Origin: Eukaryota sp. GEM-RC1
Taxonomy: Eukaryota
Direction of reading: 5' to 3'
NCBI GenBank assembly: GCA_040285855.1
Contig: JAUFOQ010000004.1
Span: 2,542,001-2,606,000, forward strand
DNA length: 64,000 nucleotides
Positions 10,663-60,549 of this stretch are shown in pieces. Under the pieces are notes generated by a model. It made no database searches. It was not told the origin of the DNA and was given only the letters and a program-made list of their open reading frames with translations. The stretch's first letter is position 1, and each line of letters opens with the position of its first letter. The position numbers were made by a program, and so were the translations under genes.

Positions 10663-11809
10663 ATGAACACAATCACCCACAGTCTCTCAAATCAGCATAA
10701 GTGCATTGCTCTTGTTCTTAGATCCTTTCAAAAGTTCCTTTCATCGTCTGCAGGTACGTTGGATATTGAAATCGCCAATGATTTTGTGAAGTTCTTCTCG
10801 CAATACGCATGTGGCTTCCATGATGCCTTTGAAGAGGAGTTTATGTACAACCACGCTCTTCAACTTAAGGATGTTTTAGATTGTGTGTTGGTCATCAAAA
10901 ATGAGCACATAAGACTACAAGGTTTGTTTCCACTTGTTCTCTTATCATAGATCTCTGCAAGGAAATGGAGAAAGCTCTTTCCGGTCCATTGTCAAGTTTC
11001 AAGAAGATCGCAACTCAATACTTCAGTTGCCAACTATTCCATGTCTATGTTGAAGATACTCAGCTCTTTCCTAAGCTCTCCATGTACATTGGGGAGTTTG
11101 ATTTGGAGAAGTCCAATTTGGACTTCGAACTCCAAGCTTCCATTAGGGATAATATACACCTCGAAGACCTTGGTTATTCATTGATAGCCAAGTTTCTTCC
11201 TGAAGACGTTGACTATCACTTTTCTTGGGAATCATTCACAAATAGTATAGCCAGTTTTGATCCTGTGTTTGCTCACTTGAAGAACGACCATCAACTTATT
11301 CTCAATGTGATTTCTTCCTTTGAGAAGAAGTTTGAAACAGATTCTTGTTCGGAATCTCGAAAAGTTCATAGTGCTGTCTTTATCTCTTTCCTGTCACGCT
11401 ACTTTCTAGACGTTCATTCAAAGAAAGAATCTCATGTTCTTTTCCCATTGCTAAACAGCTTGGATTTCCCTCTGATTTTGGACCCTTACCCCTTTTGATT
11501 GGAGATCTTGAATATATTAGAGATTTGATTGCTGATTGTCATGATTGCGATGATGATTTTGATTGCATTTTTGATCTCATTTCTGATGTTAGAATCCTCT
11601 TAAAGAGTAAGTCAGGTGTTTTATATAGACTTATGAACTTCCACCTTGCTGAACATGGTTTTGCTGACTCTCAAAAGGTTTTAGCAGAATTTGAACTTCT
11701 TGAAGATAATTGTCGTTCTCTCTTTGATGAGCTTGATGACGTGTTTGTTTTTTCTCAGGATCAAAATGGTTATAGCGCAGGTCAATCTGAGTCTGCCAAT
11801 CAAAGTTAA
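10663..11809 (+). CDS. Tandem hemerythrin-like (HHE) domain protein, copy 1; intron 10922-10950; frameshift near 11443
   Basis: Pattern H..HDAFEE..EH..HVYVE..LFP. The T run at the frameshift is one T shorter than in copy 2. Confidence 0.75.
10922..10950 (+). other. 29-nt spliceosomal intron
   Basis: GTTTGT...CTTATCATAG. Removal restores LQDLCKEMEK; the intron is conserved in the paralog. Confidence 0.9.
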
Positions 11810-12330
11810 TAGTTAATCACTTAGAATAACAGTGGTACATCTACATTTTAGTCTATCAACCAATATTAAGATTTGTTTATAAAGTCAAAGTATTTCAAGT
11901 ATCAAATAGCTACTTATTATGCTATTGATATCAAAAGTTCATCTAGAAGTGGCTTTTTGAAGAGGAAAACAGACAGATCACAAATAGACAGTTACAATGT
12001 GGTTGAAAGAAAGCAAACTGTTGGCCACATTTGTATATTATCATGCAGATAGCCTTTGTTCATAGAGAAAACATAGGCAACATTCATTTGAATCTTTTCC
12101 AGTTATCATGCAATTGTGGATGAAGTTCTATGGAATCACCATAAATCAGCTAAATAAGAATGTTTTTCAAGAAATGACATCTGCGCAATGGTGAAGTGAT
12201 AGCGCATCATTGCAATTAGAGACAAACAAATGCTAATGAGGTGATGACGTGATGAAAGAGTCTGATCCGCGACTTTTTTATACAAACACACTCTCCCTGA
12301 TTGAATTCCTTCCCATTTTGGCTAGCCAAG

Positions 12331-13490
12331 ATGTCCCTTGCGTATCATCTCTCAAATCAACATAAGTGCATTGCCCTTGTCCTCAGTTCCTTCCAGAAGT
12401 TTGTGTCATCTTCAGTAGATTCATTGGACACCACTACCGCCCAAGAGTTTGTCACCTTCTTCTCACAATACGCTTGTGGCTTCCATGATGCATTTGAAGA
12501 AGAGTTTATCTACAAGAATGCCCTCCAACTTGAGGATATTATAGACTGTGTGTTGGTCATCGAAAAGGAACACATAAGACTACAAGGTTTGTCCCCGTTT
12601 GTTCTCTTATCATAGATCTCTGTAAGGAAATGGAGAAAGCTCTTTCCGGTCCATTGTCAACTTTCAAGAAGATCGCAACTCAATACTTCAGTTGTCAGTT
12701 ATTCCATGACTATGTTGAAGATACTCAGCTCTTTCCTAAGCTCTCCATGTACATTGGGGAGTTTGATTTGGAGAAGTCAAATGCAGATTTAGAATGCCGA
12801 AACTTGGAAATTGATCATCTTGAAAACCTCGGATATTCATTGATCGCCAAGTTTCTTCCTGACAACGTTGACTACTTCTTCTCCTGGGAATCCTTCACCA
12901 ATAGTTGTACTGCTAGCTTTGATCCTGTGTTTGCTCACTTGAAGAACGACCATCAACTTATTCTCAATGTGATTTCTTCCTTCGAGAAGAAGTTTGTAGC
13001 AGATACTTGTCCGGAATCTCGAAAAGTTCATAGTGCTGTCTTTATCTCTTTCCTGTCACGCTACTTTCTAGACGTTCATTCAAAGAAAGAATCTGATGTT
13101 CTTTTTCCCATTGCTAAACAGCTTGGATTTCCCTCTGATTTTGGACCCTTACCTGTTTTGATTGGAGATCTTGAATATATTAGAGATTTGATTACTGATT
13201 GTCAAGATTCAGATCGATTAATTGATGATGCTGATTGCGTTTTTGATCTCATTTCTGATGTTAGAATCCTCCTAAAGAGTAAGTCAGGTGTTTTATATAG
13301 ACTTATGAATTTCCACCTTGCTGAACATGGTTTTGCTGACTCTCAAAAGGTTTTAGCTGAATTTGAACTACTTGAAGATAATTGCCGTTCTCTGTTTGAT
13401 GAGCTTGATGACGTGTTTGTTTTTTCTCAGGATCAAAATGGATATAATGTTCGACAATCTGAGTGCATCCAGCGAGGTATTATTCTCTAG
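12331..13490 (+). CDS. Tandem hemerythrin-like (HHE) domain protein, copy 2; intron 12587-12615
   Basis: Paralog of copy 1 with an intact frame after splicing. Confidence 0.78.
12587..12615 (+). other. 29-nt spliceosomal intron
   Basis: GTTTGT...CTTATCATAG at the same position as in the paralog. Confidence 0.9.
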
Positions 13491-13734
13491 ACTTTTTTGG
13501 TGGTTAGTTTGATAGTTTTCCTAGTTACATATTCTAGTTTTTCAAAATTTATTGCATCTCTGTTATTTGGAATTTTCTAAAAATTTGAAATGACCATATT
13601 GATTAGATCTTCATAGTTTGCATCTATTTAAAAAGAAACAGTTTCAGTTGTAGGTGTACAAATTGTTAGAGTTGAAAAACTACGTACAGTAGTTCAAATG
13701 GTCAAGGATTCTTAAACCAGGCCGTAATATTTCC

Positions 13735-17159: not shown

Positions 17160-17829
17160 ATGCAGCTTGTTGACCTCTCTCATGTCATCAGAAATGGTCT
17201 GCCCGTATATGTATGTACACTTGCTTATCGTCTCATTTCATCCTGGAACTGAACCTATTTCAGTTGAGCAGGCTAACAGTATTCCTGTTCATGGATACGA
17301 AGAAGTCAAGTTGACCATCACTTCCCATGTTGGTACTCACATCGATCTCCCTTCTCACATGAAAGTTGGTGCTGAAAACATCTCCACAGCTCCTGTTTCT
17401 AAGTATTACGGCCCCGCTATCAAGGTTGATGTACGTCATGTATCAGGTCTCATCAATATTGAAGATTTGAAGCCCTTTGAAGAAACCATCTCTAAGTCTG
17501 ACTTTTTGATTCTTCAAACCGGTCATGATCAGTACTTTGGTTCTGACCAGTACTTTGAAGGATTTCCAGTATTATCTCCTGATGCTGCGTCTTATATCAT
17601 TAAGGTCAACCCTGACATTAAGGGGGTTGGAATGGACTGCATTTCTCCTGATCCATGTGATACTACTACGTTTGATATTCACCATATCCTATTCAATCAT
17701 AACATGGTCATTATTGAAAATCTGAAGGATCTCGATGCAATTCCTTCAAATGTCTTTACTTTTGCAGGGTTTCCAATGCACATTGAAAACGGAGATGGAT
17801 CTCCCATCCGAGCTGTAGCTATTGTTTAA
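17160..17829 (+). CDS. Cyclase family / kynurenine formamidase (KynB)-like metal hydrolase; intron 17211-17241
   Basis: MQLVDLSH..GLPVY|PGTEP, HVGTHIDLPSH, IENL and GDGSPIRAVA. Confidence 0.9.
17211..17241 (+). other. 31-nt intron with non-canonical GT-AT ends (or a base-call error)
   Basis: GTATGT...CTCATTTCAT. Exact removal restores the conserved PVYPG. Confidence 0.75.
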
Positions 17830-23599: not shown

Positions 23600-24489
23600 A
23601 TAGATATCACAATGAGAGCAATGAAACCCTAGACACCGGAAATTCCTGGTCAACACTACTACAGTTCTTATACAACTTCATGATAATTGATTAAAAAACT
23701 TGGGCACCGAACGGAACAAAGCAATAATCAAACGGTTATACCAAATTGATAAGTTAAATCTCGTATTCGGAGACTTACACATAGATCCAAAATCAGTTAA
23801 AAACTTAGAAGCAATGTCACCAATACTACTAAAAAAGAAATATTAAATGAAACAAATACAAATTTTTAATATAGATATTTTGATTGAGTTTAGCAACATC
23901 TTTGGAATACAAATCAATATATTACGTTTTTCAGCTGTTTCTAGATGATTGAAACCTTGTGAATTGAAGCCATTAACATAAGTTTGACCACATGGATAAA
24001 CTGTTGTAGCATCAAGGATAATTTGACTAGAATCAACAAAAGGACCATGTAAGTCACCTCGACGAGAATTACTAATTAAATCAAGACCCCACTTACTAAA
24101 TAAGGGTTAAACTTTGGTATGAAATCCATGAGCTTTAAACATTTCTAATGTAACATCTCTTACATCACTATGAAGAACAGAACGAAACTGAATAAATTTG
24201 GGGCAATTAATTACATGTCTAAAAGTTGCATTGCGAGGATGACTAGATACAAATTCAGATTTGGCGAGCAATTCCGCAGAAAACAAACCTAAACGTAAGC
24301 GCATCTTTATAATTTCCAAGTCTCATCAGACAAATGCAAACCAAAAGGTCGTGGTTGTTGAGTGATCAAACAAGTGGAATTCTTAATATCATTTAAGAAA
24401 ACAGCAAAAACGGGATTATTTAGTAACACTAAAACGATTTGCGAAATCGAGGTTTTCAAATGGATAAATTTGAAACTTAACCCACACAC
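23600..24489 (-). mobile_element. 5'-truncated CRE-like non-LTR retrotransposon
   Basis: FGLHLSDE..MRLRLGL..FRHVINC..HGFHTKV, RRGDL and PD-(D/E)xK-like remnants. Confidence 0.8.
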
Positions 24490-24509
24490 AACGGGAGAGA
24501 CAATAGAGA

Positions 24510-25325
24510 TTTAGAAAACCTTAAATGTTCTCGTTTGCCAAGAAAATTTTGTTTTAATCTCAAGGATCATGAATGGCTTATAAACATGAGACTTAGGTTA
24601 AGTTTATGGCCTTCAGGTCTTTTGAAGCATTCTCCATGTCTTTGTGGTCGTTCAAAGGCTTCAAAGTTTCATCATTCAGTTAACTGTCATCAATTTATTC
24701 ATTTTCGATCAATTATTCACAACAGTATCCGGGATACATGTTTGGATATGTTTAAGGCTAATGGTTTTCATGGAAAAATTGAACCTTTACTTGCTAATCT
24801 TTCTGATCAGCCAAAAGTTGATAGAAGTCGTGGTGATTTGATTGGTCCTTGGTTATCTTGTCAGGAAATTATCATGGATTTCACGACTGTTGATCCTTGT
24901 AATTCAAGGTCAATTTCCAAAAATTTTGATGATTTTTCTGCTCTTGAAGTGGCTGAAAAAGGAACAATACAAATTACTGTCACTTAATTAACCAATTGAA
25001 TGTTGACAGGTACAATGTACAATTCTTTTGTGTTTCAACCTTTTGCGATGTCGATATACGGTAATATTGGACCAGCTGCACAAGGTTTTTTAACTTCTCT
25101 TGGTAAATTGTGTACTGAGTTGGTAAAGTTTTCAATGAAACTTTTTGGTTGAGTAGGTTAACGTTTGCGTTGTTTCGTTCAATGCACAGATATTTTAATT
25201 CAATTTTAGGTAAGTGGTTCGGTGATGGACAGAAGGATCATAGTTTAGATACTTTAGTTAGTGTCTGTTAGTTATTAACTTCTGCAAATGCATTATTTCA
25301 CTGACTGATCATAAACCCCGTTTTA
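24510..25325 (+). mobile_element. 5'-truncated CRE-like non-LTR retrotransposon
   Basis: CLC..H..C zinc knuckle and RGDL..DFTTVD..E.AEK restriction-like endonuclease motifs. Confidence 0.82.
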
Positions 25326-25449
25326 TAATGTCCGATTATAGTCACTGTAGATTATGTGGAGTGCTGTAAACAACAAGAAATTCAAGTGAATTGAAGATTT
25401 CCGCTGAGGAATTGTTTATAAAGTCAGATGTGTTGATGAAACAGTTGTT

Positions 25450-25592
25450 GAATTAAACAAAAATTAGAGTACCCCACCCTACGCCAAGTAGCCATAAGGG
25501 AGCCGGACTGCCACTGTCACACCGCAGTGCAATGGTGGAGGACAATCCAGTTGTGACTATTCTTGAGCAGTCACAATGTACTAAGGTATGTT
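25450..25592 (-). ncRNA. U1: U1 spliceosomal snRNA (variant 5' end ACAUAC)
   Basis: In order: 5' AACAUACCU; helix H AGUAC/GUACU; SL I 8-bp stem with loop GCUCAAGAAU (U1-70K-like); SL II loop AUUGCACUGC (U1A site); SL III; Sm site AAUUUUUG. The ends are approximate. Confidence 0.9.
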
Positions 25593-25984
25593 AAAGAGAA
25601 AGTGAAAATTTGTAAATTTAAATAGATTTCACTAGTGCTCCCACTAGTGGGGGATCCTTCAAATGACTAAATTTAACTTTTCTCTTCACAATCCTTTGTG
25701 GAGGTGATGAATACAGCAATGATGTTTTACATACTGCTGGTTTGATGCTAAAACGCAAACTATCATCCATTACCTCATCCGTCTTGCACGGGAATTTTTT
25801 GTTAACTCAACAACTGTACTTGTATGTTTCTTAATGAAACTTCTTTATGAATGGTCTTCTGTGGTGTCCTTATAGTTCGGCGATGTTCCATTTGGAAACT
25901 TGTCACACAATCTCGTACATCTTGGTCTCTATGTGACTTTGACTCTCAAGACAAGAATATTTATTCAGAATATATACATCAAAA

Positions 25985-27763
25985 TTAGACCTTGTTAGAA
26001 GTCAATGGATTGAAAGACTGAGACTCAAAAGAGGCCAAACTCTTTCTAATCATAAAGAACACCAACCCTCCAACAACTACAGAAGCAATCAAACCAACAA
26101 TTACACCAAGGATTAGAGCAATTGGCATGTTGTTAGTATGAACAGCAGGTTCAACAAACTTTACCACTGTGGGATCCTGAGTAGCAGCATCATTGGGATG
26201 AAAAGACAAATCCTCATTCAAATAGCTCTCAGAAGTGAGTAGAGCATTCTCACCACCAAAGAACAACTTTACGGAAGTGATAAATCCAGTTACCGGACAT
26301 CTCATGAACTGAACAAGCATCCTACCATAAGCTGAATCAGCATAGTAAACATTGCTATGAAAATGAGAGAGTTCTAAAGGCAGATGATTGTACCGGCATT
26401 CAGAATCAACAATAGAATCACTTAAATTCAAGACAAGAGAACCATAGAAAGGATGGTGCCATGAGGTTTCACTAAAATCTGAAGGAGAGATTGATGATTG
26501 CAAACTGTCTTTCACAACAGGAACACCATCAAACTTGGATGGAAGAGGTGAAAAATCGTCCTTGAACCGTGTTCCCATATCGTTTGTGAAGGAAAAAGCT
26601 GACAATGGGTCTATTTCGTCTGGTAGAGGAACACCTCCTGTCATGTACTGATAGAGTCCTAAAAAGGCAGTAACCATAAGGTTGTCGTTACCCCCGTAAA
26701 TGTTGTTGAGACCAGCAAAACCATAATCAACTGCTGGGCAAGCAACATACAAAGAGGTATGTCCAAAGGAATTACCACCATGTGAGTAGCATCGGATGCC
26801 CATCACGTCATAGATGAACACCCCACGTCCAAGACCCACTGGAGTAACAGCACCATCGCCAAACAGCATTGTTCCTCCAGGGTAGAAGTTTCCCATTTGT
26901 CTCATTGGAGCATGAGAGGAGCTGTTGATGACAGGGAGGAACCATTGGGTGAATTCAGCTAGTCCTTTAAGAGACAGAGCTAACCCCCAGCAGGAGCACT
27001 GCTGTGGCTAAGTCCCTCATCCATGGCTTGAGGAGGTTCATATAATTCTCCAGTCTCTTCATCGACCATATACCCCTTAGAGTAATCCATGTCATCAGCT
27101 TTAAGATCAGCAAGTGTATAGTAGCCCTTAGGTTTGGATTCCAGCTTGTTCAAGATCCGTTCTTGGATTAAGTCTTTAAAGTCAGTATCTTCAAGGTACT
27201 CTGGGATAAAACCAGCAAGGGAAAACGCGGCGTTATTGTAGAGGAACAATGGAGCACGGAACTCAGCCAGAGGCATGTAAAACTTCAGACTGTAGACGTA
27301 ATCTCGAAGGGACAGTTCTGGATTCGTAAAGGAGGGGAACGAGCCACTGTAAGCCCCAAAGCCTGTCTGATGGTAAACCAAATCTTGTAGTGTCATCATT
27401 GATGAACGGACTGGATCCCCACATTCCCAAAAGGGGGAGAATTGACGCAATGCGACTATCCCAAGTACACTTACCCTCAAGAGTGAGATTGTGGATCAGC
27501 AGCGTGGTCAGTGTTTTGGTGATACTGGCAATTGGAAAGTAGGTATCTCGGGTGACAGGATCTTCAGTATTGATGTCTTTCACTCCTGTGACATAATCGT
27601 GAACGAAACCGTCCTTTGTAACAATAGCATAACCTCCTCCTGGAGAAGGCAGCGTGGAATCAAACCAAGTATCAATAACAGCGTAATCCGTTTCGTCCGC
27701 TTTGCATGGAATAATGCTTACTAGGAGTAAAAGAGACGTAAATACATATACAATATTCATCAT
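25985..27763 (-). CDS. Beta-lactamase/penicillin-binding-protein-like serine hydrolase with signal peptide and C-terminal TM helix; frameshifts near 27432 and 26983
   Basis: SxxK (IASITK), YxN (YNN) and HGG motifs, with hydrophobic N- and C-termini. Confidence 0.85.
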
Positions 27764-30412
27764 TTTGTGAGAGGTATGAGTGCTTTTTTATGTTTCACCC
27801 ATAAAACAATGACAAGCGTGATGACACGTTTGTCAGTATTAGATTTAGCTAGCATTATCTCTGTCCACTCTTTCTTGTGTCAATCCCCATTATCCATCTC
27901 ATATGGTTTTCAATAAATTAGTTATAGATATTGCGTATAGTCCATTGATTTTTTGTTTCTAGGAAAAACGTTCCAAGGGTCAGAGGTTCCAGGACACAAT
28001 TACTACTGTCTTCTTTGTTCATATGTCATTTGTTAAGTTGACCCTTTTGTATTCTCCTTGTACGGCTCTCTTGGTGAATCAGCACAATCATTACTGCAAA
28101 TCTTTCCTAAGAAAGAAATCAAATAATTTAATAAAGAAATCAACATCTACGACTTTTGGTCATAGATTTTGGAAAAATAAAAGTGTGTTTGCTGTATTTA
28201 AAGGTATGCTGACTTCTGTATCTAGCGCTTTATTATCTCTTGGCAGACACTTTGAGGATAATGATTATTAGATGTATGTACACGGTAGTGTTGTTGTTCA
28301 TAAAATAATCATATGTGTTAAGTCTTAGCGCTTACATTTATACATAGAAGAATGTAAATTTACAGTCTTCTACATGTATGTATAACAAAAAAACATTTTA
28401 CTTGAAGACACCAACTTACCACGTACAATGTACACTAACCAAAACTAGAAGAAAGTAGAGTTAGGTTGTTGTGACAGAAGTGGTTGGACATAAATCTAAG
28501 TCAACAGTGATATTTGCGATGCTTGTGTGTGTGGCATTGAACGCTAACACGTAACACGGCTTGACACCTAACACGCGTGTTAACACGTGTGTAGAAGTAC
28601 CAAAATATTTTGTTGTTTAATAAATGAAGTATAAACCCAATCACTTGTTTTTATGTTGTGTGTATTTTTGAACGATTTATATGACTCAATCTTGAAAGAA
28701 TGCAAGGGATAATATTTACTTTCTGTCTTATTTGTTACATGACCACAGCTATATAATCCAAAAAGGAACTCACTGATAGTACAGCTTTTGCGATGATTAA
28801 AGGAATTGTTTTACAAACAGTTTAAACTATACTAACAGATGATCAAAACGGTTGTTATCCTTTTTTACTATTTTTCGACATCATTTATGCAGAGTTTTTC
28901 CCACTGCTCTTTTAGTACCCCTCTTTTCTCAAAAAGAAGGGGTAGATACTTCAAGTAAAGCACTGATCATGACATTCTACGAGGCTGCTTAAAGAAGACT
29001 TTTCAGTACCAATCCAGTATCATTAGACTTGCTGTTGAAGTGACAAAAGTATATAGTGACATTGGTTTTGATGAACCTACTTTTTCTTAACTTAAAAAAT
29101 TAAAATAGCATCAAACCAAGGGTGTCCAAAGCTATATTTCTTCCTTTGAAACTATATTGTTTTCTCTGAGAGAATATATTCTTTTGCTGCCAAAGAACTT
29201 AACTTCGGAGAATCTCAATTGCATTGTACTGTTCTTGACTTTGGTACATCTAGTTTTGTTTCATCGGGTTTATACCATATTTCTTTTGAGGGAAAACAAC
29301 TTCAACTTGATGTATTTTTCGAACACATCACTAAGCTAACAATCAATTAAGATTGTTGCTGTAAGACAGTAGAAGTATATAAACAGCTGCAGTTATCTCA
29401 TTTTTCTTTTGTTCATGAACAAGTGTTCCAACTGGTATTACCTCTGATATCAGTGGTGAAAAGAATTGTATTTTATGATGGAGCAGTATCTTCAAAAAAA
29501 TTCAAAAAATTCAGTTGATGATCTAGACGGTACTGGAAGGAAATTCCAGTTTCAAGAACTTCAACAACAACTCTTGGGTTGTGTATTGGGTATTGAAACT
29601 ACCCAATCCCATCATTTCAAATCTGGGAATGAAGTCAGGACTCAGTTGTCGGAGACGTTAGCATTATGTATGATGAGGAGTGTACAGTACTAGAAGTATA
29701 TGAGTGCACTGCCAAAAAGTGCTATCGTCTTCACTTCTGTATGGTACTTTTGTTGATAAGTCAAAACATTTCCATGAAAAATTCCTATAACAATGCCATT
29801 TAAATTAACAACGACAGTTTTGAACAATGAACAATTCTTGTTGCGGTGCTCGTTAGACCGAGAGTATTTTCGTCTACAACAATAAAAAAATGATTAAAAA
29901 TCCGATTGGATGACCGATCCGAAGTTGATCCGATTACAAGGTCTATTACAAAAGAAGATTATGATGTAAAATTCTTTCGTTATTTAGATATTTTAATAAC
30001 CAAAGGGTTCTGTGTCCATTTCACAACAGGATGAAGTCCAAGGTAGAAGTAGTTCAGTAATACCGGATATGATATTTCTTTTTTTTTTATGAACAGTGCT
30101 CAATGAAGATATAACAACTTGAAGCACAATTGATTGATTAATTATATGTAGCAGAATGAAAACAAGGAGGTTCAGTAGAGCTTCTCACAAATTACTAGCA
30201 TACCATGTGTCACTTTCAACTCTTGTTTCCAAAGTCCTCTAGTGTAGTAGATTGCTTTATCAAAGAGATTTCTTCTGAATGTGATGCTGTAAGGCTGTGA
30301 TGCAAGCGTATTTGAACACGCATCTTAACTTGGTAGTAAAGAAGTGAAACTTTACTGCAGTGCTGTGCAATAAATATTGCACGTCTTTTGATGCGCAATA
30401 TATTTATTGCAA

Positions 30413-37993: not shown

Positions 37994-38605
37994 ATGTTCA
38001 GAAACAGCTATCAGTCAGGTTTTCTATCAATTCTATATTCCATTGGATCAAAACCGCTCCAAATATGGAACAAAAGTGTGCGGAATGGACATATCAAAAG
38101 AATCACAGATCCTGATATTCAGTCGCTCGCTCTTGAAATTGCTGGTACCAACGTCAGCACCACTTATATAACGTGTCCGGCGGATCCTAAACAAACACTC
38201 GGAATCAAACTCCCCTTTATCGTCTTCATCTTGAAGAATCTTAAACGTTACTTTACCTTTGAAGTTGAGATTCTTGATGATAAGAATGTCCGTCGCCGTT
38301 TCCGTGCAAGTAACTATCAAGCAAACTGCCGTGTAAAGCCTTTCATCTGCTCCATGCCTATGCGTCTTGAACCTGGTTGGAATCAAATCCAGTTCAATCT
38401 CAGTGACTTTACTCGCCGTGCTTTTGGTACCAATTACATTGAAACCCTTCGAGTCCAAATTCATGCAAATTGTCGTCTCCGTCGTATCTATTTCACTGAC
38501 AGGCTATACTCTGAGGAAGAACTACCAGCTGAATTCAAGTTGTTCTTGCCTTTCCAGAAAACGCAACAAGAACCAACTGAGCAACCTCAGTTCATGGATA
38601 ATTAA
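37994..38605 (+). CDS. CFAP20: Cilia- and flagella-associated protein 20 (BUG22)
   Basis: [25 protein letters not shown]...[15 protein letters not shown], a near-invariant family sequence. Confidence 0.97.
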
Positions 38606-39787: not shown

Positions 39788-40830
39788 AATGTTTATTCGG
39801 CACCCAATAAGGTAACCTTCCTACAAACTATGAAATTGTAAAAACAAACAAATAATACTAAGATTAATCCAAACGACTTCATCACCACCCGGTAAAAGAT
39901 TACGTTTATCAACATTAACCTTCACACCAAACTTGTACAATTTCTCAATTAATCTAGAGAAATAGAAAGGCATATTCCGATATATGAAAAACACTATACG
40001 GTTTTTCCATTCAGCCATTCTAAACTTACGCTTCTTTTCTTTACACAATTCTTCGAAATCCTTGAAAAATTGATCACCAGCAGGACTAATAGATCCAAAA
40101 AGAGAAACAGCAAAAGGTTGAAACACAAATTTAGAATATGAGTTTCTATTTAATTCTTCTACTTGAGAGTCATACTTGGAGTGTTTGAGCTTTTCAGCTG
40201 CTGTTAATGGATTAAAAGTAGAATCTAATATCCTACTAACACAAGATTTGTTACATACATCTACTGTAGTAAAATCCATTAATGATTGACCCGATTTAAG
40301 CCACGGAGTATGTAGATCCCCTCTTTTTGATCAGTAAATTCATTTTCTGAAAGATGATTCAAAACTGGTTCAACTTTAGAGTGAAAACCATGTGCTTTAA
40401 ACATGGAATAACAAGAATCACGTACACCATCATGAATTACTGCACGTAGATGAATAAAATAACGACAATTAATTAAATGACGAAAAACACCATTAGCTCC
40501 ACAAGAGCACGTTGAATAGTTTAATAAATTTGCAGGCCAAATAGCCAAACGAAGACGCATATTGATCATCCAAGCTTCATCAGATAGATGTAATCCATAC
40601 ACCTTTGGAATTTGAGAAATAAATCCAGAAGGTCCACTATTACAAAGATCGATCAAAAAGCAGCGAACTCGGGACTATTAGTTTTAGCCAAGCTAATACG
40701 ATTATTAAAGTCCAAGAGTTCAAACTCCTTGTCAATTTATTTTGCAGCTTACATACAGCAGACGGTAGAGATGAAATATTTTTAAAGGAGTCTCCTTCAA
40801 ATGAGCAGGGAACAAAGATTCCCACATTTC
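39788..40830 (-). mobile_element. 5'-truncated CRE-like retrotransposon with 3' UTR
   Basis: CCHC and endonuclease motifs. Near-identical segments occur at 45865-46152 and ~62900-63105. Confidence 0.85.
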
Positions 40831-40859
40831 AGGAGACAAAAAATTATTTATTTGTTTAT

Positions 40860-41335: not shown

Positions 41336-41424
41336 CTCTTCATAAAAATGAATATTTTACTATTAAATTTGATGAAAACATCTTGACTGATATACCAAAG
41401 AATTTATTCACAAAGATTACCCAT

Positions 41425-42112
41425 CTAACAAATATTGTTATAACGAATAGGACTGAAGGAACCAGACCAATAAGGACTAGAGTTAGTGAGAAGAACTGAA
41501 ACAAACTAGGGAGTGACGCGAGCAACAGAACCCTTGGACGAAGACTCCTCGTAAGCCAGATACTGGGTATGAGCACTATTGGCCCATTTGACGAACAATA
41601 CAACGTGTCCAGATCCTAACAAAGCATCACCTTCACGTAAGTCATTCTTAGAGATACTGCGAGATACTGAGGAGATGGTGCGAGTGGTTAAACCAGGTTT
41701 AGATAATCCCCAAGCCATGCTAACGAATCCTGAGGTAAGAAAGAAGGACCAAAATACCAGAGCAATCAGTTCTATATCCTTCAAAAGTCTTGGACTGAGA
41801 GTATGGAATATGAAGGTCAACCCAGCGTTTTCCATGAGCCAATACTGTCTGACGAGAGACACAGCCAAGAGATTCACAGAGAGGAATTCCTTCTTGATCT
41901 CCATTAGCGGAGCAAGGACCGTTAAATGGTGATGGAACACTTAGACTATGGCAGGACAGGTCACAGTTTTCAACATCATCGCCACACAAATACTTAAGAG
42001 ACTGCTCCTGAAGTAGATCTGTTTGAGAGTTTACACATAATGATCCAACGCAGCAGGTTACATCGGCGGACACCAAAACTAGGACAAGAGCTAAGAAGAG
42101 ATAGAGTTGCAT
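41425..42112 (-). CDS. Secreted NlpC/P60-like cysteine hydrolase, copy 2; introns 41730-41757 and 41477-41506
   Basis: Spliced product reads IPYSQ..GYRTDCSGFVSMAW..GDALL..GHVVLF..YEE..PYPYWSG..PIRYNNIC. Confidence 0.85.
41477..41506 (-). other. 30-nt intron
   Basis: GTTTGT...CTAACTCTAG. Removal restores TPYPYW. Confidence 0.88.
41730..41757 (-). other. 28-nt intron
   Basis: GTATTT...CTTACCTCAG at the same position as paralog intron 39271-39298. Confidence 0.88.
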
Positions 42113-45075: not shown

Positions 45076-46373
45076 CAGTGATCGGAACTAAATAATTGCA
45101 CTACAAATAATTTAAATACAATATATCCCAATTATTTATTGTTCGAGTACCACAATACAATACAATAAATAAAATATACTGATTACAATACAAATTATTT
45201 TTCATGTCTACTTTCCTAAGATCTACTCATCCAAACAGATCAGTGACAACTTTTTGAGGTCAGAGATGATTGTGACGACCGTACTGCTTCTCCTAGAGAC
45301 AACCATGTGAAGTACGATTGTTAATGCAGCAGTTATCAACCGCTGCATCCCACATCCATCCACTCAATGAATAAAATTGTCATGTATGTGTCCAAAACTA
45401 TCGCCATAAATAGTAAATATTGGTTGTTGTGTTTTCAATGTGAACACTATATGAATTCTATTTTAGACAAGTATGTTGCTGGTACATGGAGATTCGTCTT
45501 TTCCACCGAGCAGCTTCTTACTGTTAGTATACTCTCACAGTTCGTGTGAAATTCTGGTTTTTCTTTAGCATTTATTGTCTTCAAACATTATATCAATGGC
45601 GACGGTCTGCTTCTGAATGAATGACACCCTAAGACAATTTTTGTAGCTAACAAATGCACGAATTTTGAGAATGATGGGATATACCTTCAAACACTTGTTA
45701 CCGCCAATCTGCTGGACCATATACTAAGTAGAGTGTAGAAATACGTGTATATTGTTCTTGGTATTTCATTTTTTCTTCAACGATTTTGTATAGCCATCCC
45801 TTTTACCAATAGATGTGTGGTGTTTCGATCGTGAATTACTTTTTGTACATCCATGAACTTTTTTGATCAATTTTTCAAGGATTTCGAAGAATTGTGTAAA
45901 GAAAAGAAGCGTAAGTTTAGAATGGCTGAATGGAAAAACCGTATAGTGTTTTCCATATATCGGAATATGCCTTTCTATTTCTCTAGATTAATTGAGAAAT
46001 TGTACAAGTTTGGTGTGAAGGTTCATGTAGATAAACGTAATCTTTTACCGGGTGGTGATGAAGTCGTTTGGATTTAATCTTAGTATTATTTGTTTGTTTT
46101 TACAATTTCATAGTTTGTAGAAAGGTTACCTTATTGGGTGCCGAATAAACATATTGGTTTTCCATGAACTAGTAATGTCATTATTAACACTGACTATGAC
46201 CATTGCAAAATCGACTGTATCATACTAGCAAATGTTAGTTAATGATATTTTTCAGTACAAATAGAATCAATATTGTTCACAATATTTTGTGATTATTGAT
46301 TAACAATACAATTATTTATTGTTGCAGTTTGCAAAAGTGCAATACAATACAATACAATAAATTCCGATCCCTG
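45076..46373. mobile_element. Non-autonomous hAT element (1298 bp) with a nested retrotransposon 3' end
   Basis: TIR CAG(T/G)GATCGGAA, perfect 8-bp TSD ATTGGATG, and CAATA subterminal repeats. Confidence 0.88.
45865..46152 (+). mobile_element. Short 3' end of a CRE-like retrotransposon
   Basis: Near-identical to the reverse complement of ~39789-40075. Confidence 0.85.
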
Positions 46374-46599
46374 ATTGGATGTCCTATATATGTCGGTGAA
46401 AATAGCAAACCACTGGTGTTAGCACGACTATTTCACACATTCATTTGTTAGGAAGACGTGTTTGAATTGTAAACATTGTTAAACCAATAGTGTATTTCCT
46501 AAAGAATCTATTGTAGGGTAATAGGGAGCATTATATTAGTGGTTACAGTTCTTGTAGTTCTTTAAGAATTTTTTAAATATATTATTGGAATGTATGATT

Positions 46600-47100
46600 G
46601 TAATTACGAAAAGAGAATCAATTTGTTAGTAAACGTAGTGCAGATGTTCTTCTTCTTCAGACAAATTGTATGTTGTCGATGTGCTGTCTGTTGATGTTTA
46701 TAAAAAGACGTCCTTAAAGAATGCCCAGCTGGAAACTGTGTCTTGAGATATTTCTGAACATGAAGCCAAAGAGGATAAGTACAAAAATCCATTGAATGAT
46801 CTGAAACATGTAAAACATGTTGAATATGAATTATGTCTTTTGTTGTATCAATTTACAGCCGATTACCAAAAAGTGTATAGAATTGTCTAAACGATTTCCG
46901 AAAATAGTTAAGAAAAAGGAGGGCCTTTGATCATATGTTATGGTCGGATCGTATCGCATTTGCTATTTGTAAAACAATTCCCCTAATCATCTCCAAAGCT
47001 TAATTGACTGTGAGTTCCTTTTATAAGAATATAACTGCTGTAAGAATCGATAGCGACGGGTGTTGTTTTAAGCAAATCAAATTTTAGTGTCTGTCAGTCA
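46600..47100 (+). mobile_element. Degenerate CRE-like retrotransposon 3' fragment
   Basis: Similar to the reverse complement of 33360-33850. Confidence 0.75.
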
Positions 47101-47269
47101 CTACATTTCTATGTAAGAATTTCTATGTAAGCATGCTAGTTTTTTTTCACGAATGCAGTCTGCTATTCACAAATATGAAATACAGTCACTATTTGATGTA
47201 CTCAAATGTTTTTTATACCTTTGTTTAAAAATCAAAGTATATAGAACAAAAACAAAAAGTACAAAAACT

Positions 47270-47580
47270 AGAACTCAATATCATTAAAGCAACAATTAAT
47301 TATTGCCATTAAAACTCATTTCAGCGTTTTTTCATGAAAAATACTGAGAGCTAATAGAGCTTTTGAAAACAAAATAGGAATTGTTTTACATATTGTAAAG
47401 ACAATTCGATTCAACCAAAACTTAACATCAAATTTCTTGTTCATTGTCTTTTTGATACACTTTCTCAAAATCAGAGAGAAAACAAAAAGAATCATTACTA
47501 AATCGACCATAAATGCAAAAGGACATAATTTGTACTCAAGATGTTTAGTATGATTGACAGCAGTCAAGGGAACATTGTAC
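47270..47580 (-). mobile_element. CRE-like retrotransposon 3' fragment
   Basis: KHLEYKLCPFA..FWLNRIVF..K.IP..SKAL. Confidence 0.72.
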
Positions 47581-47659
47581 ATGTATCTGTTTATCTAATA
47601 TTGTTCTGAAAAATCAAGGGGAGACACTATCTAGTTATTTATACATATCAGGTACTGAT

Positions 47660-48200
47660 TTGTGTTCGTGATCAGTGTTTATCTATGTTCAGATCTAATG
47701 GTTTCCATGACAAAGTTGAACTTCTTTTATCTGCATTTTCTGATTCTGTTATTCGGAACAAAAGTCGTGTTGATTTAATTGGACTTTTGAGGAATTCTCA
47801 AGAAATTGTACTGGACGTTACTACAGTTGATCCTTGTATTTCTACTTCGACCAAAAAAGTACTTAATGATGAAATTTCGGCCATTGAACATGTTGAAGAC
47901 AAGAAAGTTCTTCGATACATGGATTGTTTTGAAAAGAAACTCTCAAAGACACAATTCTTTTGCTTTTCAACATTTTGGAATTTCTTTCTATGGAAATTAA
48001 GGTACTGCAGCAAATAACTTCTTCTGTTCGTTTAAGGATTTGTGTAATGATTTCAGTAAAAAGTTCAACAATGGTTATTGGAAGTTTTTGCTGTATTTCG
48101 TTCTGTGCACAATTACTTTGATGATATCTTGAAGAGTTTGTTTGGTTGTATAGTAGGTTGTGTGATGGGGTAGGTTTATCTGTCTATTTTATTTTCTACA
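47660..48200 (+). mobile_element. CRE-like retrotransposon 3' fragment
   Basis: MFRSNGFH.KVE..RVDL..LDVTTVDP..E.KK..Y. Confidence 0.75.
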
Positions 48201-48639: not shown

Positions 48640-50594
48640 TTACAAAATATGATCCATTTCACTGTCAGTTTCACGTGCTAAATCTGATATCTGAGAGTTT
48701 GTTCTAGACAAATGCTTCTTCACTTTACTCCTACATTGCCTTAGATTAGTACTAAACCTTGCACATTTATCTCTTCTTCGTTCTCTCTCTAAATCAACCC
48801 CAATTGGAGGTGCTCCAGACAATGTGTTCTTCACAAGATCTCCATAAGTATTAATAATACTTAATATATATGTCAAACCTGAAACAACATGACATTCCAC
48901 ATTAGAATCTAACAAAACATTGACAGCTGGAATCAAAATGACTGCTAAATCAAGATTTACACTTGCTCGATTTGAAGATCCTAATTCCAGAGCATTAAAA
49001 ACGTCATAAACAACCGAAGGATCACTCTTACTGATTAGCTCTTTGATTGCCTGTGACTGATCCCTACTCCATCGACTGGAAACTGATTTTAGAGATGTCA
49101 GTCGCGACATCAAAACTGATTGCAGAGTGCCCGTTTGAGTCTTTACCAATTCTAAAAAAGTCCTCAGCAAGGGAATTGAGAGAAGAATCTAGATTATTAC
49201 TATTGTTGTTCACAAGGAACGCTGACGGATCCAATCCAATCGGCGTGTCTTTTGGTTGTGGTATCATTGACAACTCAAATGAGCTCTTTTGTGATTGATT
49301 TTGACTTTGATGTGATGGATCAAAGTTTTTAGGAGCTGATTTTGAGCGGTGACTGTCATCTCCTTTAGATGAGTCAATCACTTTAGAATCTAATTTTTCT
49401 GTAATACCTTCATTCTGACCTCTTTCCTCTTTCGGAACAGATCCTAACTCGGGACTTATGTCTTCCTTTGGATAACTTCCTTTTGTCTGACTACTGCTAA
49501 CAACTGATGAATTAGGCATTTGAACTACATTTACACTTCGCCTCTCATCATCGTTTCTCCTCGGGACCCGTACTTCAACTGAATTATAGTAGTTCTTCGG
49601 AGGTTTCCCAATCGGGGCAATCAATTTTAAATCAGCCACGTGTATAGAGGCCACTGATCCATTACCCACAGCTGCTACTAGACTTTTACTATCTTGAGGT
49701 TGCACTAAGAGATCCATAACTCTAGCAGAATGACTAGTACTCCCACCCCAGTTAGCTACAACTGAGTCAGCTGAAGAGAGAGAACCGTTGGAGGATTGGG
49801 AGAAGGTCCAGGATTTGAGTAGAGTCTGGGTGGTGGAGAAAAGAGCATCACCATTGGGAGAGAAAGCGACGTTAGTTACAGGGGTGGCTTCAGTGGGAGA
49901 TGAAGCAGACAAGCTGAAGGTATCAAGCTCCCATAGCTTTGTAGTTCTATCCTCACTACCTGGAAGCAAGGAGGAAGTCAGTGGGATGAAAGGAGAGAGA
50001 AGTAAAGACACCTCCATCGTCAGTGAGAGTGGAGAGGACTTTGCCGGCAGTGATGTCCCATATTTTAAGCTTACCGTCAGCTCCAGCACTTATCACCCAG
50101 CGTCCATGAGGAGAGATTTTAACAGAAGTAACAGCAGATGAGTGCCCACGATAAGTAAAGATGTCCCGTCTAGAACGAATATCCCAGATTTTGATGTTAG
50201 TATCACGACTTCCGGAGACCATGACGTGACCATAAGGATGGAAGTCTAGACAAGTGGTAGAAGTACGATGTCCAACAAAAGTTTTCGATATTGATTCATG
50301 GGCAAGGTCAAATAGTTTTATAGCACCAGAATCAGATCCAGCAGCAATAACTTGCTCTTCAGGATCAAAAGAGATAGATGTAACGGGTGCATTGTGTTTT
50401 AAAGACTAAAGTCAGAAGAACAATAAGAAAGAGCATACAAGAGTGAGGTCTGGTTTGCCAATGGTCCAGACATTGACAGCTTTGTCTTTTCCTCCAGATG
50501 CAAAAACTAGTCCGGATTTTCGTCCAACATTAAGACAGTTGGTATCGTCTGTATGTGCAACAAGTTCTTGCACTCTAGAAATGCGTTTGGACAT
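48640..50594 (-). CDS. KATNB1: Katanin p80 WD40 subunit; intron 50406-50438; frameshifts near 49960 and 49160
   Basis: QELVAH..GRKSG..ASGG.DK.VNVW.IGKP, WD repeats, and C-terminal con80 motif PPIGVDLERERRRDKC. Confidence 0.92.
50406..50438 (-). other. 33-nt intron (contains an in-frame stop)
   Basis: GTATGC...CTGACTTTAG. Removal restores KPDLTLSLKHNAPV. Confidence 0.88.
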
Positions 50595-52780: not shown

Positions 52781-55700
52781 ATGGAGAAAGTCTCACAGAA
52801 TAACTTCTTGGAAGCTTATTCTACTGTGATAAGCTTTCTATCGTCTCATGGGTGTACAGACACCGTCAAATTGTATGTCTTTTTTGCTCTAACATTAGAG
52901 CAAAACGTGATTTTGGTGTTGAGATCGATCTTGATGAAATCGAGCAATGTATCTTGTCTATGGACTATTTTCGAGCACTTGAACTTATATCTCAGTCTTT
53001 TAAAGACACTCCTTCAATCTTACAAACTAAACACGACATATCCTTACAAGCTTTAGCCGATGCCATTGTTTCTGGTGACAATGATCTGGCTGAAAAGTAC
53101 TTCTCTTACAACATTGGTCTTTTGAAGAAGCATCCATCAAAGAATGAAGAGCTACTTGCCCAGGCTCACCAAGTCCTAGATGTCTTCATCACCGAAGACC
53201 TAGAACTTGTAACTGGAAGTCAAGAGTCCAACAAGGAGTGGCTGGAATCTTGGAGACCTCACCTTGCTGCCTCAGTCAAACAGTCTCTTCAAACTGAGTG
53301 GATCTCCCAAGGCCATCCCCACCCTACCTCTCTTCCTCCACCCACTGCTTCTCTTGAGGAGCTCATATCTAAGTCCAAGGTCGTCGTCCCTGCCCCCGTT
53401 ACTGCAGGTCTCCCCCGTAGAAGCAGAGCTCTACGCAGACCTCTTTTCACTATGTCTGGAATTCCTCCTCCAGTCCCTAAGAAAGCTAGAGAAGTTGAAC
53501 TTCCTCTTACCCCACCTCCTACTAAACCTTCTAAACCAACACCCTCTGTCCCCACTCAGCCTACCCCAACTGTCCCCTCCACTCTCTCTCAAAGTGTTCC
53601 TTCAGCTCCACCTCTCCCTGAGACTCCAGCCAAGGAGGTTTCTGCTCCAGAGGTTGAAGAACCAATGGAAGATGACTCAGAAGTGATTAGAGAAAAGGAA
53701 GAGGCTCGAAGCCTTGAGATTAGGAAGGATTCCCTAGCACCATTTACTTATCGTGGATATTTAGATCTTAATACCGCAATTACAAAAGCTCATCCACTTG
53801 ATAGCAGTTGTGTGTTAGAAGGTGGATTTGATGGATCTGTGAGATTAGTCAAGTTTGAAATCACCAATCAAAATTCAATCATCGTCTATCAAGATGACAG
53901 TCGCAAATCGTCAGTCTCTTGTCTTTGTTTCTCTAGTGATGGAGGTTACTTTGCAGCTGGATCTAAGTCTGGTAGGATAGCTGTCTACAAAATGACTGAG
54001 GATGGTGCTGTTCGAAACCTGTCTGAAAGTAGATCTTCTCATAACAAACCAATTGTTGACGTTTGCTTTTACACTCGTGAGACATCTAATGGATCTCAAT
54101 TCCTAGTTTTTTCTGTATCTCAAGACAATGATTTGAAGTGTTTTAATGCTTTTACTGGAGAATTGGTTCATGAAACTACTGTTACCAATGTTAAACCTAA
54201 GGGAAAGCCAGCTAGATTATTAGTTGAGTTCATTAGCAACTCTTTAGTTCTTTTCATGGACAATGGAACCCACTTTTGCTTCACTTCTTTAGATGGAGAC
54301 TTTGGCCAGGCACAACCTCTACCAATCACAATGTCCAAACAATGCCAAGTTGTTGACGCTATTTTTGGCTCTGAATCATGCTACGTGTTAATGATTGGCG
54401 TCACATCACACGTCGTTAGATTAGATCTCTCCATCCCATCCCCGGTACCACCCCGGTGTTCGAGTTCTGTCGTGAACTCACGGGAGTAGTCCTCCCCTCT
54501 TCTCTTCCTGAGAATACTCACTTATCTTTGGCTATTGTCAACGATCTCCTCTTTGTCCCGTGTACAGCAGGTTTAGGTCTCCATTGGACTCAGAACAAGG
54601 ACGTGTTGTTGGAGGTTTATACAATGAAGGATGTTAATAACGTATATTACTCTCTTTCAGTTAGTAATGATGGTAACACTCTGTTCTTGGCAGATGCTCA
54701 TAACAAGTTATCCTTATACTCTAATCAGAACTCTTTCCTTCCTCAAGTCCCAATCACGTCATTTGATGTAAGCCTCCAACAAGTCCCCGGGTTACCCTTA
54801 CCTCCCCCCTCCTAGAATGAAAACTCCTAGACTGAAGCCCTACCAGCTGACTCTGTCTAAGTCTTGTGGAAATCCTATTAAAAGAGGAGCTATCAACAAG
54901 TCATGTCAGTCATCCCAACTTCTGTACACTGTCAATTCAGCTAATGAAGTTTTCCCTTGGAGAGTTCCTATCTCTTTAGATGAACCTATGGTCATTGAAC
55001 CTCTCCTTGACCACACTGTTAAGATCGTACCTACCCGTGGTGAAGTTTCAGGTTTCTCACTCGTACCTAACGGTAAATATCTCCTAGTAGGATCTGGAGA
55101 TAACGCTACTGTTCTCAAGAGTGTCTTTGAGGATTCTACACTCCAATCATTTGGCCCTATGCCCCATCATATTGGATTTGATCGGTTGGTACCTACTGAT
55201 TTTGTTTATTCTATCTGTAGTTGTCCAACTGACCCCAACTTCCCTTGCATATGGAACTTACAAGTCTATCTGTGGTACTTCGAAAGTACAACGTAATTCT
55301 CCCAAGGAAACGTTACCACGACCCACAAATGACGTGACCTCAGTGATTGATGTTGCCTTTTGCCTGGTTTCCTTCTATCAATGTCTGAGTGGACTCTACT
55401 CTGTTATAAACACTCTTTCTCATCAGGACCTAAGAAGGAGCACACCGTCTCTCATCAATATGACGTGATGATTCAGGACCACACGTGTCAATTCAAAGGA
55501 TTTTCTCCAAATCCTAACCACCAGTTTGATGAAGAAGGTTTTTCAATTCTCTCTGTTGCTGATAATTTCATTGATGAATTAACAATTGTTGAGGAGAAAG
55601 TAGATGTTACTAGAGTTTTGGACGTTAAGAAACAAGGATTTGGTCCTTTAGTCGGCGCTACTCTTGTGTATGGACCTCACAAAGTCATTTTCTACATTGC

Positions 55701-57512: not shown

Positions 57513-57584
57513 TCTTCTGTAGTGTAATGGTTAGCACAGATGACTCTGAATCATCTAATCCCAGTTCGATTCTGGGCAGAAGAA
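57513..57584 (+). tRNA. tRNA-Gln (anticodon CUG)
   Basis: Full cloverleaf: acceptor TCTTCTG/CAGAAGA, D arm GTGT/GCAC, anticodon stem GATGA/TCATC with loop CTCTGAA, T arm CCCAG-TTCGATT-CTGGG. Confidence 0.93.
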
Positions 57585-58083: not shown

Positions 58084-58458
58084 GTTTTAAACAGGAAAAC
58101 AGGACTCAAATCAGGTGACAGGTCAAACATTCAGACCAAATATGGTTTTTGTTTTCAATGGTAACGTATTTCATTAATCACAAATTCATGTTAATAACGT
58201 TAAGCACAATTATCCAAGAAATTTATTAGCGTTTTTCTATGATTATTGATAGTTAAAAGAACCATTGAAAATATGGATTTCAAGTCATGTCAGGGTAATC
58301 AAAAGGAATTCACCTAACCATGGCCCTTTCTAGGTTGAGGGTTCCAAAAGGTCAAACTGTCACTTACACTTAGCGAGAATGCTAAACTATCTATGTTCCC
58401 ATTATAATGGTAACTGCTACTGAATTATAAACATCATCAATGAAACCACAATCCATGA

Positions 58459-59871
58459 TCAATCAACAATCATTTTGTGCTTTAATTCTTTTGGAATTAA
58501 ACTACTCACCTCATTTTCAAAACAATTCCTTACCAATACAACTTGCCTTAAAATCTTATTAACAGAGAACACCTTGACAAAGAGCTTTAAGGTAGATATT
58601 CTGCCTCCATTTTCTGACAAATTCAACCACTCCAAAGATGAATTCCTCAACAACGCTCTCCCCAATGCTACGCCTCCATCAAGCCCAATGAAGTTCCACT
58701 CTAGATCCAGCCGTCTAAGTTCTGTATTCAGAGACAGACCACTAGCGATCTCTTTAGCCCCTTCATTTCCTAATCCATTTCCCTTTAAGGAAAGTGAACG
58801 TAGTCCTTGATTGAGGGCCAGCGATTGACCGATAGCTGACCCTCCTTCTGGATTGAGTTTGGTATAATTCAATTCAAGTGATTTTAGAGTTGAATTGACT
58901 ATTAAAAGACGACTGAATGCAACACCACCAGCAACTTCAATTGAATTACTACTAAGAATTAATGAAGTCAAGGTAGTATTAAACTCAAGGGAATTAGCCA
59001 AAGCAAAAGCTCCTACACTAGTAATGTTGTTACCTTCAAGATTTAAGTTCTGTAAGGAGGAATTCACTTTAAGGAGATCTGCAAGGAACACGCACCTTCA
59101 TCTTTTATTCCATTCATTCGAAGAACAAAAGATTTAAGTGAGAAGTTGGTGGACAGAGAAGATGAGAGAACAAGAGATCCAGCGGTGGTTACTTGTACAT
59201 GGGATAAGTCAATATGAGTAAGAGAGGTAGAAGAAGAAAGAAAGTTGGCAGAGTTTCAGATCCAATAATTCCTATTGGATTGTAGCTAAGGTTGAGAGAG
59301 GAAAGTGGAGTAAAAGAGATCAAATTGATTAGATTAACAAGGTTATCGTGGGACATTAGGCATCGAGACAAATTGAGATATTTTAAATTTTGACAATATG
59401 TTAGAGAATCTGGTTTGAGATAATCAAAAACGGTTCAGAAGCAGAAACTGCGATGGAGAGTACATAGATAGGATTGAAGTGAAGAGTTCCAGAGGAAAGA
59501 TTTTCTAGGTGGATTTGATGAGGACTACTGTTGAAGAAAGTGAACAAGTTTATCCATTCAAAGCTATACGTAGAGTCAATGGTAAAAGGAAGTGAAAAGA
59601 GATGGCTTTTAATGGCAACAGTCGTGGCTTCAAGGAATCTACCACTTACAAAGCCAAAGTTCAATAAAACATTGTGGAGAGAGAGTACAGTAGAAAAGTA
59701 ACTGTTAGAGTTAGTACTACCTAGGAGTGAGTGGTAGACTATGAGAGATATTTGACTTTGGGGTAGGTGTATAGGATCTCCATGGATAGGTTGCTCGATT
59801 GATTCTGGATTACGTACAACTGAATCACTTTCGTCTGAGGATCGGAGTAAAGCAAGAACTTTGTTGAACAT
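58459..59871 (-). CDS. RI-like leucine-rich repeat protein (frameshifted)
   Basis: 28-aa repeats of the type L..N..L..L.L..N.I...G...LA. Confidence 0.8.
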
Positions 59872-60089
59872 CCATACAGATGTAGTTAGAATGTTGCATC
59901 ACGGACTTATGCAATGGAAACACGAGAGTTTTCTCGAATTACTTTTTCTAATTGTGTCTGGGATACATTACAAATAGATGACAAAAAACTCCAGATGTTA
60001 GGTTTACGGCCTTGCTATTCGGTTGTAACTCAAAGTGTGTTTTCTGCTCATTCTCTATCAACTAAATTAAAAGAAATTTAAAGTGTGAT

Positions 60090-60549
60090 TTATAATTTGG
60101 GAGTTCCAAAAGCATACAGTTTTGAAACATAAATTCCAGATCCACCAAAGTTTTCTGTCTAAAATAAGTAGGAAAATAAAACAAACAATTTCCAGTTTAA
60201 TAAAGCAAGCATCCATAGGATTCTCGAGATCAAACAAATGATCCCCAGCCCTGTGTTCTAGTTCACCTTCTGTAACGTTTTCCCAAGTAGATCCATCCAT
60301 TGACAGATAGAAGTTGACGATACGAGGATTTTGGTTGTTTTCTCCATGAAGATACACACCGACACGATGTATGACACTAGGATCGGCAAATTTCATGACG
60401 ACAAAGTGTGGAGGTTGACAAGAAACATGAGTGAACCAAACAAGAGATGCATCACGAAGAAGCAGATTCGAGCATCGACTTTCATGATGATATTGTGAAG
60501 AGAATTCGACTATCTCAGCACCAGATTCAGAGATAGCAAGATTACGCAT
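60090..60549 (-). CDS. Small discoidin/F5-8 type C (galactose-binding-like) domain protein; intron 60159-60186
   Basis: W....PPHFVV.....P....FYLSMDGSTW...ACFIKLEI|TENFGG..IYVSKLYAFG. Confidence 0.65.
60159..60186 (-). other. 28-nt intron
   Basis: GTTTGT...CTTATTTTAG. Removal gives a plausible domain C-terminus. Confidence 0.82.

Follow-up and report, generated by a model that had tools for sequence, protein, structure and literature searches.

The window analysed here is the whole 64,000-nucleotide stretch at positions 2,542,001 to 2,606,000 (forward strand) of contig JAUFOQ010000004.1 (assembly GCA_040285855.1). Its features of interest are eleven predicted ultrashort introns and a candidate U1 small nuclear RNA (snRNA) gene, which may have co-evolved with them. 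Public entries labelled Eukaryota sp. GEM-RC1 are identical to proteins of the window, the closest relatives being TZLM1-RC and TZLM3-RCL, and the source match is Skoliomonas sp. GEM-RC, a BaSk metamonad. Skoliomonas isolates are described as metamonads that are anaerobic and free-living and belong to the BaSk clade, which is sister to Fornicata (PMC11316075). All eleven introns of 26-34 nucleotides (nt) listed in a first-pass annotation were found where it had placed them; every segment starts with GT, and all ten of the distinct 3' decamers given were located. Ten run from GT to AG and the eleventh from GT to AT. They are distributed over 8 of 20 genes, or ~0.36 introns per kb for the ~30.7 kb of coding span. 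Nine are supported by a homologue, a paralogue or a public model, and two by frame and Pfam domain fit only; public models were retrieved for four introns, and splicing was identical in three of these. Introns of the U12 type carry strict minor-class donor and branch consensus sequences; such a reading was ruled out by the donors, which follow the pattern GT[A/T]T[G/T][T/C].

Two of the introns occupy paralogous positions in a tandem pair of hemerythrin-domain genes (10663-13490, + strand). That of gene A (10922-10950, +; 29 nt, GTTTGT..TAG) is spliced identically in public model P0155, with no gap across the junction in paralogues P0154, P0156 and P0157, and that of gene B (12587-12615, +; 29 nt) is spliced in public model P0153. 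All five search hits for this pair came from the same species, and the genes could possibly reflect expansion of an oxygen-handling family. The shortest intron (52873-52898, +; 26 nt), in a LisH-like/WD40 gene, is spliced in public model P0158 and is gap-free against paralogue P0159. For two further introns the boundaries were set by GT/AG and frame: one of 33 nt in a katanin p80-like gene (50406-50438, -), a multiple of three with two in-frame stops, has WD40 matches on both sides, and a PDB search gave no alignment across its junction; the other, of 28 nt, is in an F5/8 type C domain gene (60159-60186, -), of which the first exon encodes 121 residues and the Pfam match breaks off at residue 120, corresponding to position 111 of the 127 in the profile. 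A phage search and a short PDB search gave no matches.

The GT-AT intron (17211-17241, +; 31 nt, GTATGT..CAT) is found in a cyclase/arylformamidase gene (17160-17829, +), for which the public model has no first exon. With the intron removed, the gene product aligns without gaps to 4/4 homologues tested, whereas public model P0001 leaves it unspliced, in another frame, with a far lower homologue score (85 against 150 for P0002). When the 31-nt deletion was shifted through 13 placements the peptide was unchanged in three, with ends AT-TC, TG-CA or GT-AT, so that the sole GT-starting placement preserving the conserved motif ends in AT. As the assembly is full of indels this AT may be an error, and the GT-AT end is thus either real or a G>T assembly error. 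Apart from S. litria, the closest matches of the gene come from bacteria or unnamed sources; it was probably acquired by lateral transfer and also bears an intron.

The remaining five introns lie in two secreted NlpC/P60-like paralogues (38840-39606, +, and 41424-42112, -), which were compared with intronless bacterial homologues, 80 loci being kept. The plus-strand gene carries introns at 39155-39188 (34 nt, ending in AAG and absent from the paralogue), 39271-39298 (28 nt, at a position common to the paralogue) and 39513-39543 (31 nt, at a private position), and the minus-strand gene at 41477-41506 (30 nt, a multiple of three with an in-frame stop, 12 nt from the paralogue's third intron) and 41730-41757 (28 nt, with a GTATTT donor). 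The two genes validate each other, all five junctions being gap-free. Against the bacterial set, residue counts are equal across 39155-39188 in 79/80 homologues, across 39513-39543 in 64/80 rows and across 41477-41506, a variable region, in 44/80, and all 80 are colinear at both 39271-39298 and 41730-41757. Pfam NLPC_P60 was found on 4/4 bacterial pieces, over the cut-off in one. Close bacterial homologues, mostly actinobacterial, were among the 80 loci, and both paralogues are probably laterally acquired cell-wall hydrolases.

Alignment of the introns on their 3' ends reproduced the motif counts of the first-pass annotation, namely T at -9, A at -7 and a pyrimidine at -6 in 11/11 and C at -10 in 9/11. 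TNAY at -9 to -6 is accordingly present in all 11, strict CTRAY in three, and positions -8 and -5 to -3 are variable. An invariant A column did not arise in any of 200,000 within-intron shuffles, either for all 11 introns or for the nine or so that are independent once one of each of two paralogous pairs has been dropped; two invariant columns arose in 0.001% and 0.013% of shuffles for the 11- and 9-intron sets, respectively. When the introns are aligned on their 5' ends no column past +6 is invariant, hence the anchor is the 3' end, and a length-ruler or 5'-anchored model was ruled out on this ground. The distance from the 5' end to the A at -7 varies by 8 nt (about 20-28 nt) and that from this A to the acceptor, with four bases between A and AG, is constant in the 11 introns. 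The -7 position holds the sole internal A common to all of them, and in the intron at 41730-41757 it is the only internal A (after +6 and before -2); for both reasons it is likely to be the branch nucleotide. The NlpC/P60-like paralogues have one intron position in common and three private ones, two of those separated by only 12 nt. This suggests that introns were gained once the genes had been transferred, and the new ones follow the same -7 rule.

A rule combining GTWTGY, a length of 26-34 nt, TNAY at -7 and AG gave nine hits in the 20 gene spans (30.7 kb), all among the 11 introns. An indirect hint that the motif is more widespread comes from five introns of public models which apparently patch frameshifts or a false start: TNAY stands at -7 in three of the five (base rate 4.6%, P=0.0009) and A at -7 in four (P=0.04), as if the predictor had learned the motif genome-wide. 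In a donor-anchored tally TNAY was found in 9/58 GT[A/T]TGT..AG pairs of 26-34 nt, compared with 4.4% of all AGs, but this is not an independent result, as eight of the nine pairs are introns of the first-pass annotation.

Several points weigh against a branch point fixed at -7. The introns and their branch positions are predictions from sequence, only about nine are independent, and they were picked by a reader who possibly favoured the motif. A blind intron scan without scoring of the 3' motif returned 108 noisy candidates, mostly indel breaks, and thus no independent set (one candidate, at 26984..26959 on the minus strand, was dismissed on visual inspection as an indel within a run of G), and the above rule with GTWTTT donors made two hits in coding sequence outside the known introns. 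Further TNAY motifs at -11 to -19 offer alternative branch sites in 6/11 introns, and in the 34-nt intron the site at -17 pairs better with U2 than that at -7 (6/6 against 4/6). The degenerate motif and the 3' anchoring claimed in the first-pass annotation stand, whereas the invariance of the spacing is not established: nine of nine independent introns give a one-sided 95% lower bound of 0.72 for the genome-wide share.

The putative U1 snRNA gene, which had escaped the first-pass annotation, is intergenic, at 25432-25593 on the minus strand (Rfam RF00003, full-length match at model positions 1-166, 29.2 bits, E=0.0017 for the window), and directly upstream of it lies a gene for a beta-lactamase-fold serine hydrolase (25985-27765, -) that has a C-terminal membrane anchor as well as a signal peptide and is broken by indels. 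The 5' reader of the U1 candidate has ACAUAC, preceded by another A, in place of ACUUAC, and the donor base opposite the change, +4, is U in 11/11 introns. The core of this end forms 59/66 Watson-Crick pairs with the 11 donors, compared with 48/66 for the canonical end, and the duplex energy is better than with the canonical end for 10/11. A four-way junction in which a closing helix meets stem-loops I-III is given by both the free fold and the centroid (z=-2.61; 6/200 shuffles equally good); the stem sequences differ from the consensus. Aligned to the model, in order, are a U1-70K-like loop UCAAGAA, a U1A loop AUUGCAC and an Sm site, AAUUUUUG; this chain of motifs occurs once in the window and in 0/300 window shuffles, the pattern having been written after the hit was seen.

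The identification should nevertheless be considered with caution. The score is far under the Rfam gathering score (69.5 bits), for which reason the gene is classed as a divergent candidate; 5/11 donors (GUUUGU) would still face it with a U-U mismatch at +3; and stem-loop IV is weak, with no stable hairpin past the Sm site. Stem-loop IV is also reported missing from the U1 of Giardia and Candida (PMC2483917, PMC6679479, PMC3510501, PMC6260720). An Rfam scan of the 64-kb window gave no match to U2, U4, U5 or U6. That a base error in the candidate should happen to match every donor is unlikely, and the gene appears to compensate for the +4U donors, which would be a rare change.

Taken together, these observations make it probable, in our view, that the acceptor is chosen by its distance from the branch point and that U1 has co-evolved with the donors. 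Under such a mechanism U1 (ACAUAC) would pair with GU[A/U]UGU donors, the complementarity being computed and the binding presumed, and U2 would pair weakly with yUnAy, leaving the branch A bulged. The 4 nt that separate branch A from AG leave no space for a pyrimidine tract, and the branch helix and its six-nucleotide tail may therefore be docked as a single unit for the second step. The distance from the 5' end to the branch would be free within about 20-28 nt, subject to a lower limit on total length. The 34-nt intron (39155-39188) skips two possible acceptors, CAG at +23 and GAG at +25; the branch-like A nearest to these lies at -6 and -8, and that of the used AAG at -7. Such skipping fits a ruler, but fits a minimum length as well, since acceptors giving introns of 23 and 25 nt could also be excluded in that way. 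Three intron-like sequences, 19, 22 and 23 nt long, also have a good donor and TNAY at -7 but stand in frames that require no splicing there, one of them inside a 616-residue open reading frame present unspliced in the public collection, and from these the minimum intron length is probably just above 23 nt.

The strongest competing explanation is scanning, in which the first AG downstream of the branch point is used and -7 is a strong preference resulting from pressure to keep introns short, a smaller share of branch points lying at -6, -8 or -9 as in Entamoeba invadens. The ten AG introns all lack an AG between the A at -7 and their acceptor and thus also obey a first-AG rule, and for this reason the ruler-type choice proposed in the first-pass annotation is not established. 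The branch A of E. invadens is reported at two adjacent offsets, in 81% and 17% of introns, and if the true share here were 81%, nine of nine at -7 would still be seen with P=0.15. However, the branch-to-AG distance is the same throughout, against a range of 8 nt in the distance from the 5' end to the branch, and the next AG after the GT-AT cyclase intron is 22 nt downstream and out of frame; if real, that intron would under scanning run on to this AG and break the frame, and would hence decide for a ruler. We regard scanning as unlikely on balance, well behind branch-anchored choice.

It is far less likely that yTnAy at -10 to -6 is an extended acceptor motif read by a U2AF/SF1-like protein, with branching at another, variable A. 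Such a reading would accommodate both the additional TNAY motifs at -11 to -19 and the scarcity of strict CTRAY, but one intron (41730-41757) offers no internal A except that at -7 and another (12587-12615) has only those at -7 and -4, and the shape of the motif is that of the general branch consensus, reported as WCTRAYN (PMC2483917), which TNAY resembles. Least probable of all is an artefact of reader selection or of assembly errors, for although frameshifts are frequent, the introns were picked by hand and all were predicted from sequence, the insertions are of 26-34 nt, begin with GT[A/T]T, are delimited by independent homologues and in three of four cases are spliced identically in public models, other homologue-checked frame breaks being 1-nt indels.

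Single-base errors are numerous in the assembly, and this must be set against the preferred, branch-anchored reading. The frame breaks in the window other than introns are mostly 1-base indels, often at homopolymers, and introns are consequently sparse. Two such indels in the alanyl-tRNA synthetase gene were confirmed via homologues and one in hemerythrin gene A via its paralogue, the remainder being judged by eye. Conserved genes broken in this way (3306-6223, 35516-37945, 48640-50594 and others) encode alanyl-tRNA synthetase, MCM3, katanin p80, PI3-kinase and TSG101, some of them apparently patched in public models by false introns. The published assemblies are described as long-read with short-read correction, and the gene models as made with HISAT2, GeneMark-ET, AUGUSTUS and PASA (PMC11316075).

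Among the other features of the window, MCM3 (35516-37945, -) and CFAP20 (37994-38605, +) are arranged head to head with ~48 bases between start codons, and a tRNA-Gln (CTG) gene lies at 57513-57584 (+). Several decayed non-LTR (long terminal repeat) retrotransposon pieces, of reverse transcriptase, are found at 24100-25000, 34254-35391, 39800-40700, 45800-48000 and 62900-63528, two copies ~5.8 kb apart forming 99% identical inverted repeats. Metagenome scans with the hemerythrin-domain protein P0153 found no skoliomonad DNA, and with alanyl-tRNA synthetase gave identities of at most 52% among the best 80 of 105 matches, compared with 66-69% between skoliomonads.

The available text of the paper describing these isolates mentions introns once, in its methods (PMC11316075), and a search of its supplements (six files, a picture-only PDF lying outside the search) gave no match for introns, the spliceosome, splicing, snRNA or U2AF; no description of BaSk splicing was found in the literature searched, subscription papers and preprint supplements lying outside it. 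As regards known systems, the contrast drawn in the first-pass annotation with the conserved motifs of Giardia and Trichomonas was too strong, since a loose motif with near-fixed spacing has been published for E. invadens and Stentor, and Trichomonas type B introns, of 25-26 nt and thus similar in size to those described here, also have near-fixed spacing. A close likeness is to E. invadens, in which the branch A is at -8 in 81% of 904 introns and at a neighbouring offset in 17%, and TNA is found at the two offsets in 98% (bioRxiv 10.1101/2022.06.08.495308). In both systems the offset is near-fixed and the motif partly degenerate, GUUUGU donors occur, a U1 5' end is altered to the donor and recent intron gains follow the same rule. 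They differ in offset (-7 here), in the U1 end (ACAAAC in E. invadens, ACAUAC in our candidate) and in the donors, split here between GUAUGU and GUUUGU, and the motif is looser here, with CTRAY in 3/11 against AYURAY matched at five or six of six positions in 87.6%. As E. invadens is an amoebozoan the likeness would be convergent.

Fixed branch spacing with strict motifs has been reported for Giardia, Trichomonas, Spironucleus and Yarrowia (PMC2483917, PMC6679479). With the first three, its metamonad relatives, the skoliomonad shares the fixed branch-to-acceptor distance, the lack of a pyrimidine tract past the branch and GUAUGU-type donors (PMC2483917, PMC6679479, PMC3510501, PMC6260720). Those organisms are described as having a strict consensus of 11-13 nt, an offset of -8 (-9 in Spironucleus) and a few to a few dozen introns, whereas the skoliomonad introns have a free spacer and an offset of -7 and number ~0.36 per kb of coding span; Giardia U1, moreover, retains ACUUAC in place of the ACAUAC of the candidate. 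Since the distance is fixed in 11/11 introns of the window but a strict consensus with A at -8 is lacking, the introns work like the fused branch point/3' splice site motif of Giardia and Trichomonas but are not classed as one. Giardia, too, has non-canonical ends on record: CT-AG, AT-AC and GT-AT, the last in a 30-nt candidate for which splicing is rare (PMC10711314). The 15-16 nt introns of Stentor coeruleus similarly have a 3'-anchored branch A without strong consensus, at -6 (10th of 15 or 11th of 16; PMC9505925), but their length is near-fixed, in contrast to 26-34 nt here, and Stentor U1 is canonical. Introns below 30 nt are reported from ciliates, microsporidia, dicyemids and myxozoans (PMC13644364), so that neither size nor fixed spacing is new in kind. 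What is new, in the BaSk clade, is an offset of -7 together with an unconstrained spacer and a variable length, each element of which has a precedent.

As to the U1 end, yeasts and Giardia retain ACUUAC although their donors have U at +4. In Saccharomycotina the ACUUACC end is invariant in 227/230 genomes with a U1 candidate despite switches to +4U, with which METTL16 and SNRNP27K are predicted to be lost or altered (PMC10581693), and Entamoeba and Mastigamoeba are reported to have other compensations (bioRxiv 10.1101/2022.06.08.495308). The same preprint cites a Physarum polycephalum U1 with ACAUAC, the same change at position 5, matching +4U donors; Physarum is, however, an unrelated lineage and has both standard and modified U1. 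The ACAUAC candidate is new here and would be a compensation absent from yeasts and Giardia.

A far-reaching extension, which we put forward as doubtful, is that skoliomonads would have thousands of ~30-nt introns whose 3' ends are defined by geometry and not by sequence, the acceptor lying strictly six nt after a barely specified branch A even where it is not AG, as in the GT-AT cyclase intron; recognition of the 5' end would have been hardened by a U1 fully complementary to GUAUGU(U), possibly alongside another U1 serving GUUUGU donors, and the sister group of Fornicata would then show the step towards the strict Giardia motifs, spacing having been fixed first and sequence later. At a more general level, comparisons in the literature associate fixed branch spacing with strict consensus and extreme loss of introns (PMC2483917). 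In a free-living metamonad beside the Giardia lineage, with spacing fixed, the motif loose and introns moderately numerous, it could be tested which of spacing and sequence is the first to harden, and also whether fixed spacing, at offsets of -7, -8 and -9, is ancestral in metamonads. The -7 rule also helps to correct gene models, in which the GT-AT intron is missed and introns are apparently invented where the frame shifts. Finally, two papers describe it as a puzzle why U1 is hardly ever altered to match where a lineage has +4U donors (bioRxiv 10.1101/2022.06.08.495308, PMC10581693); the change in the U1 candidate bears on this, as the present lineage appears to be one in which U1 has compensated.

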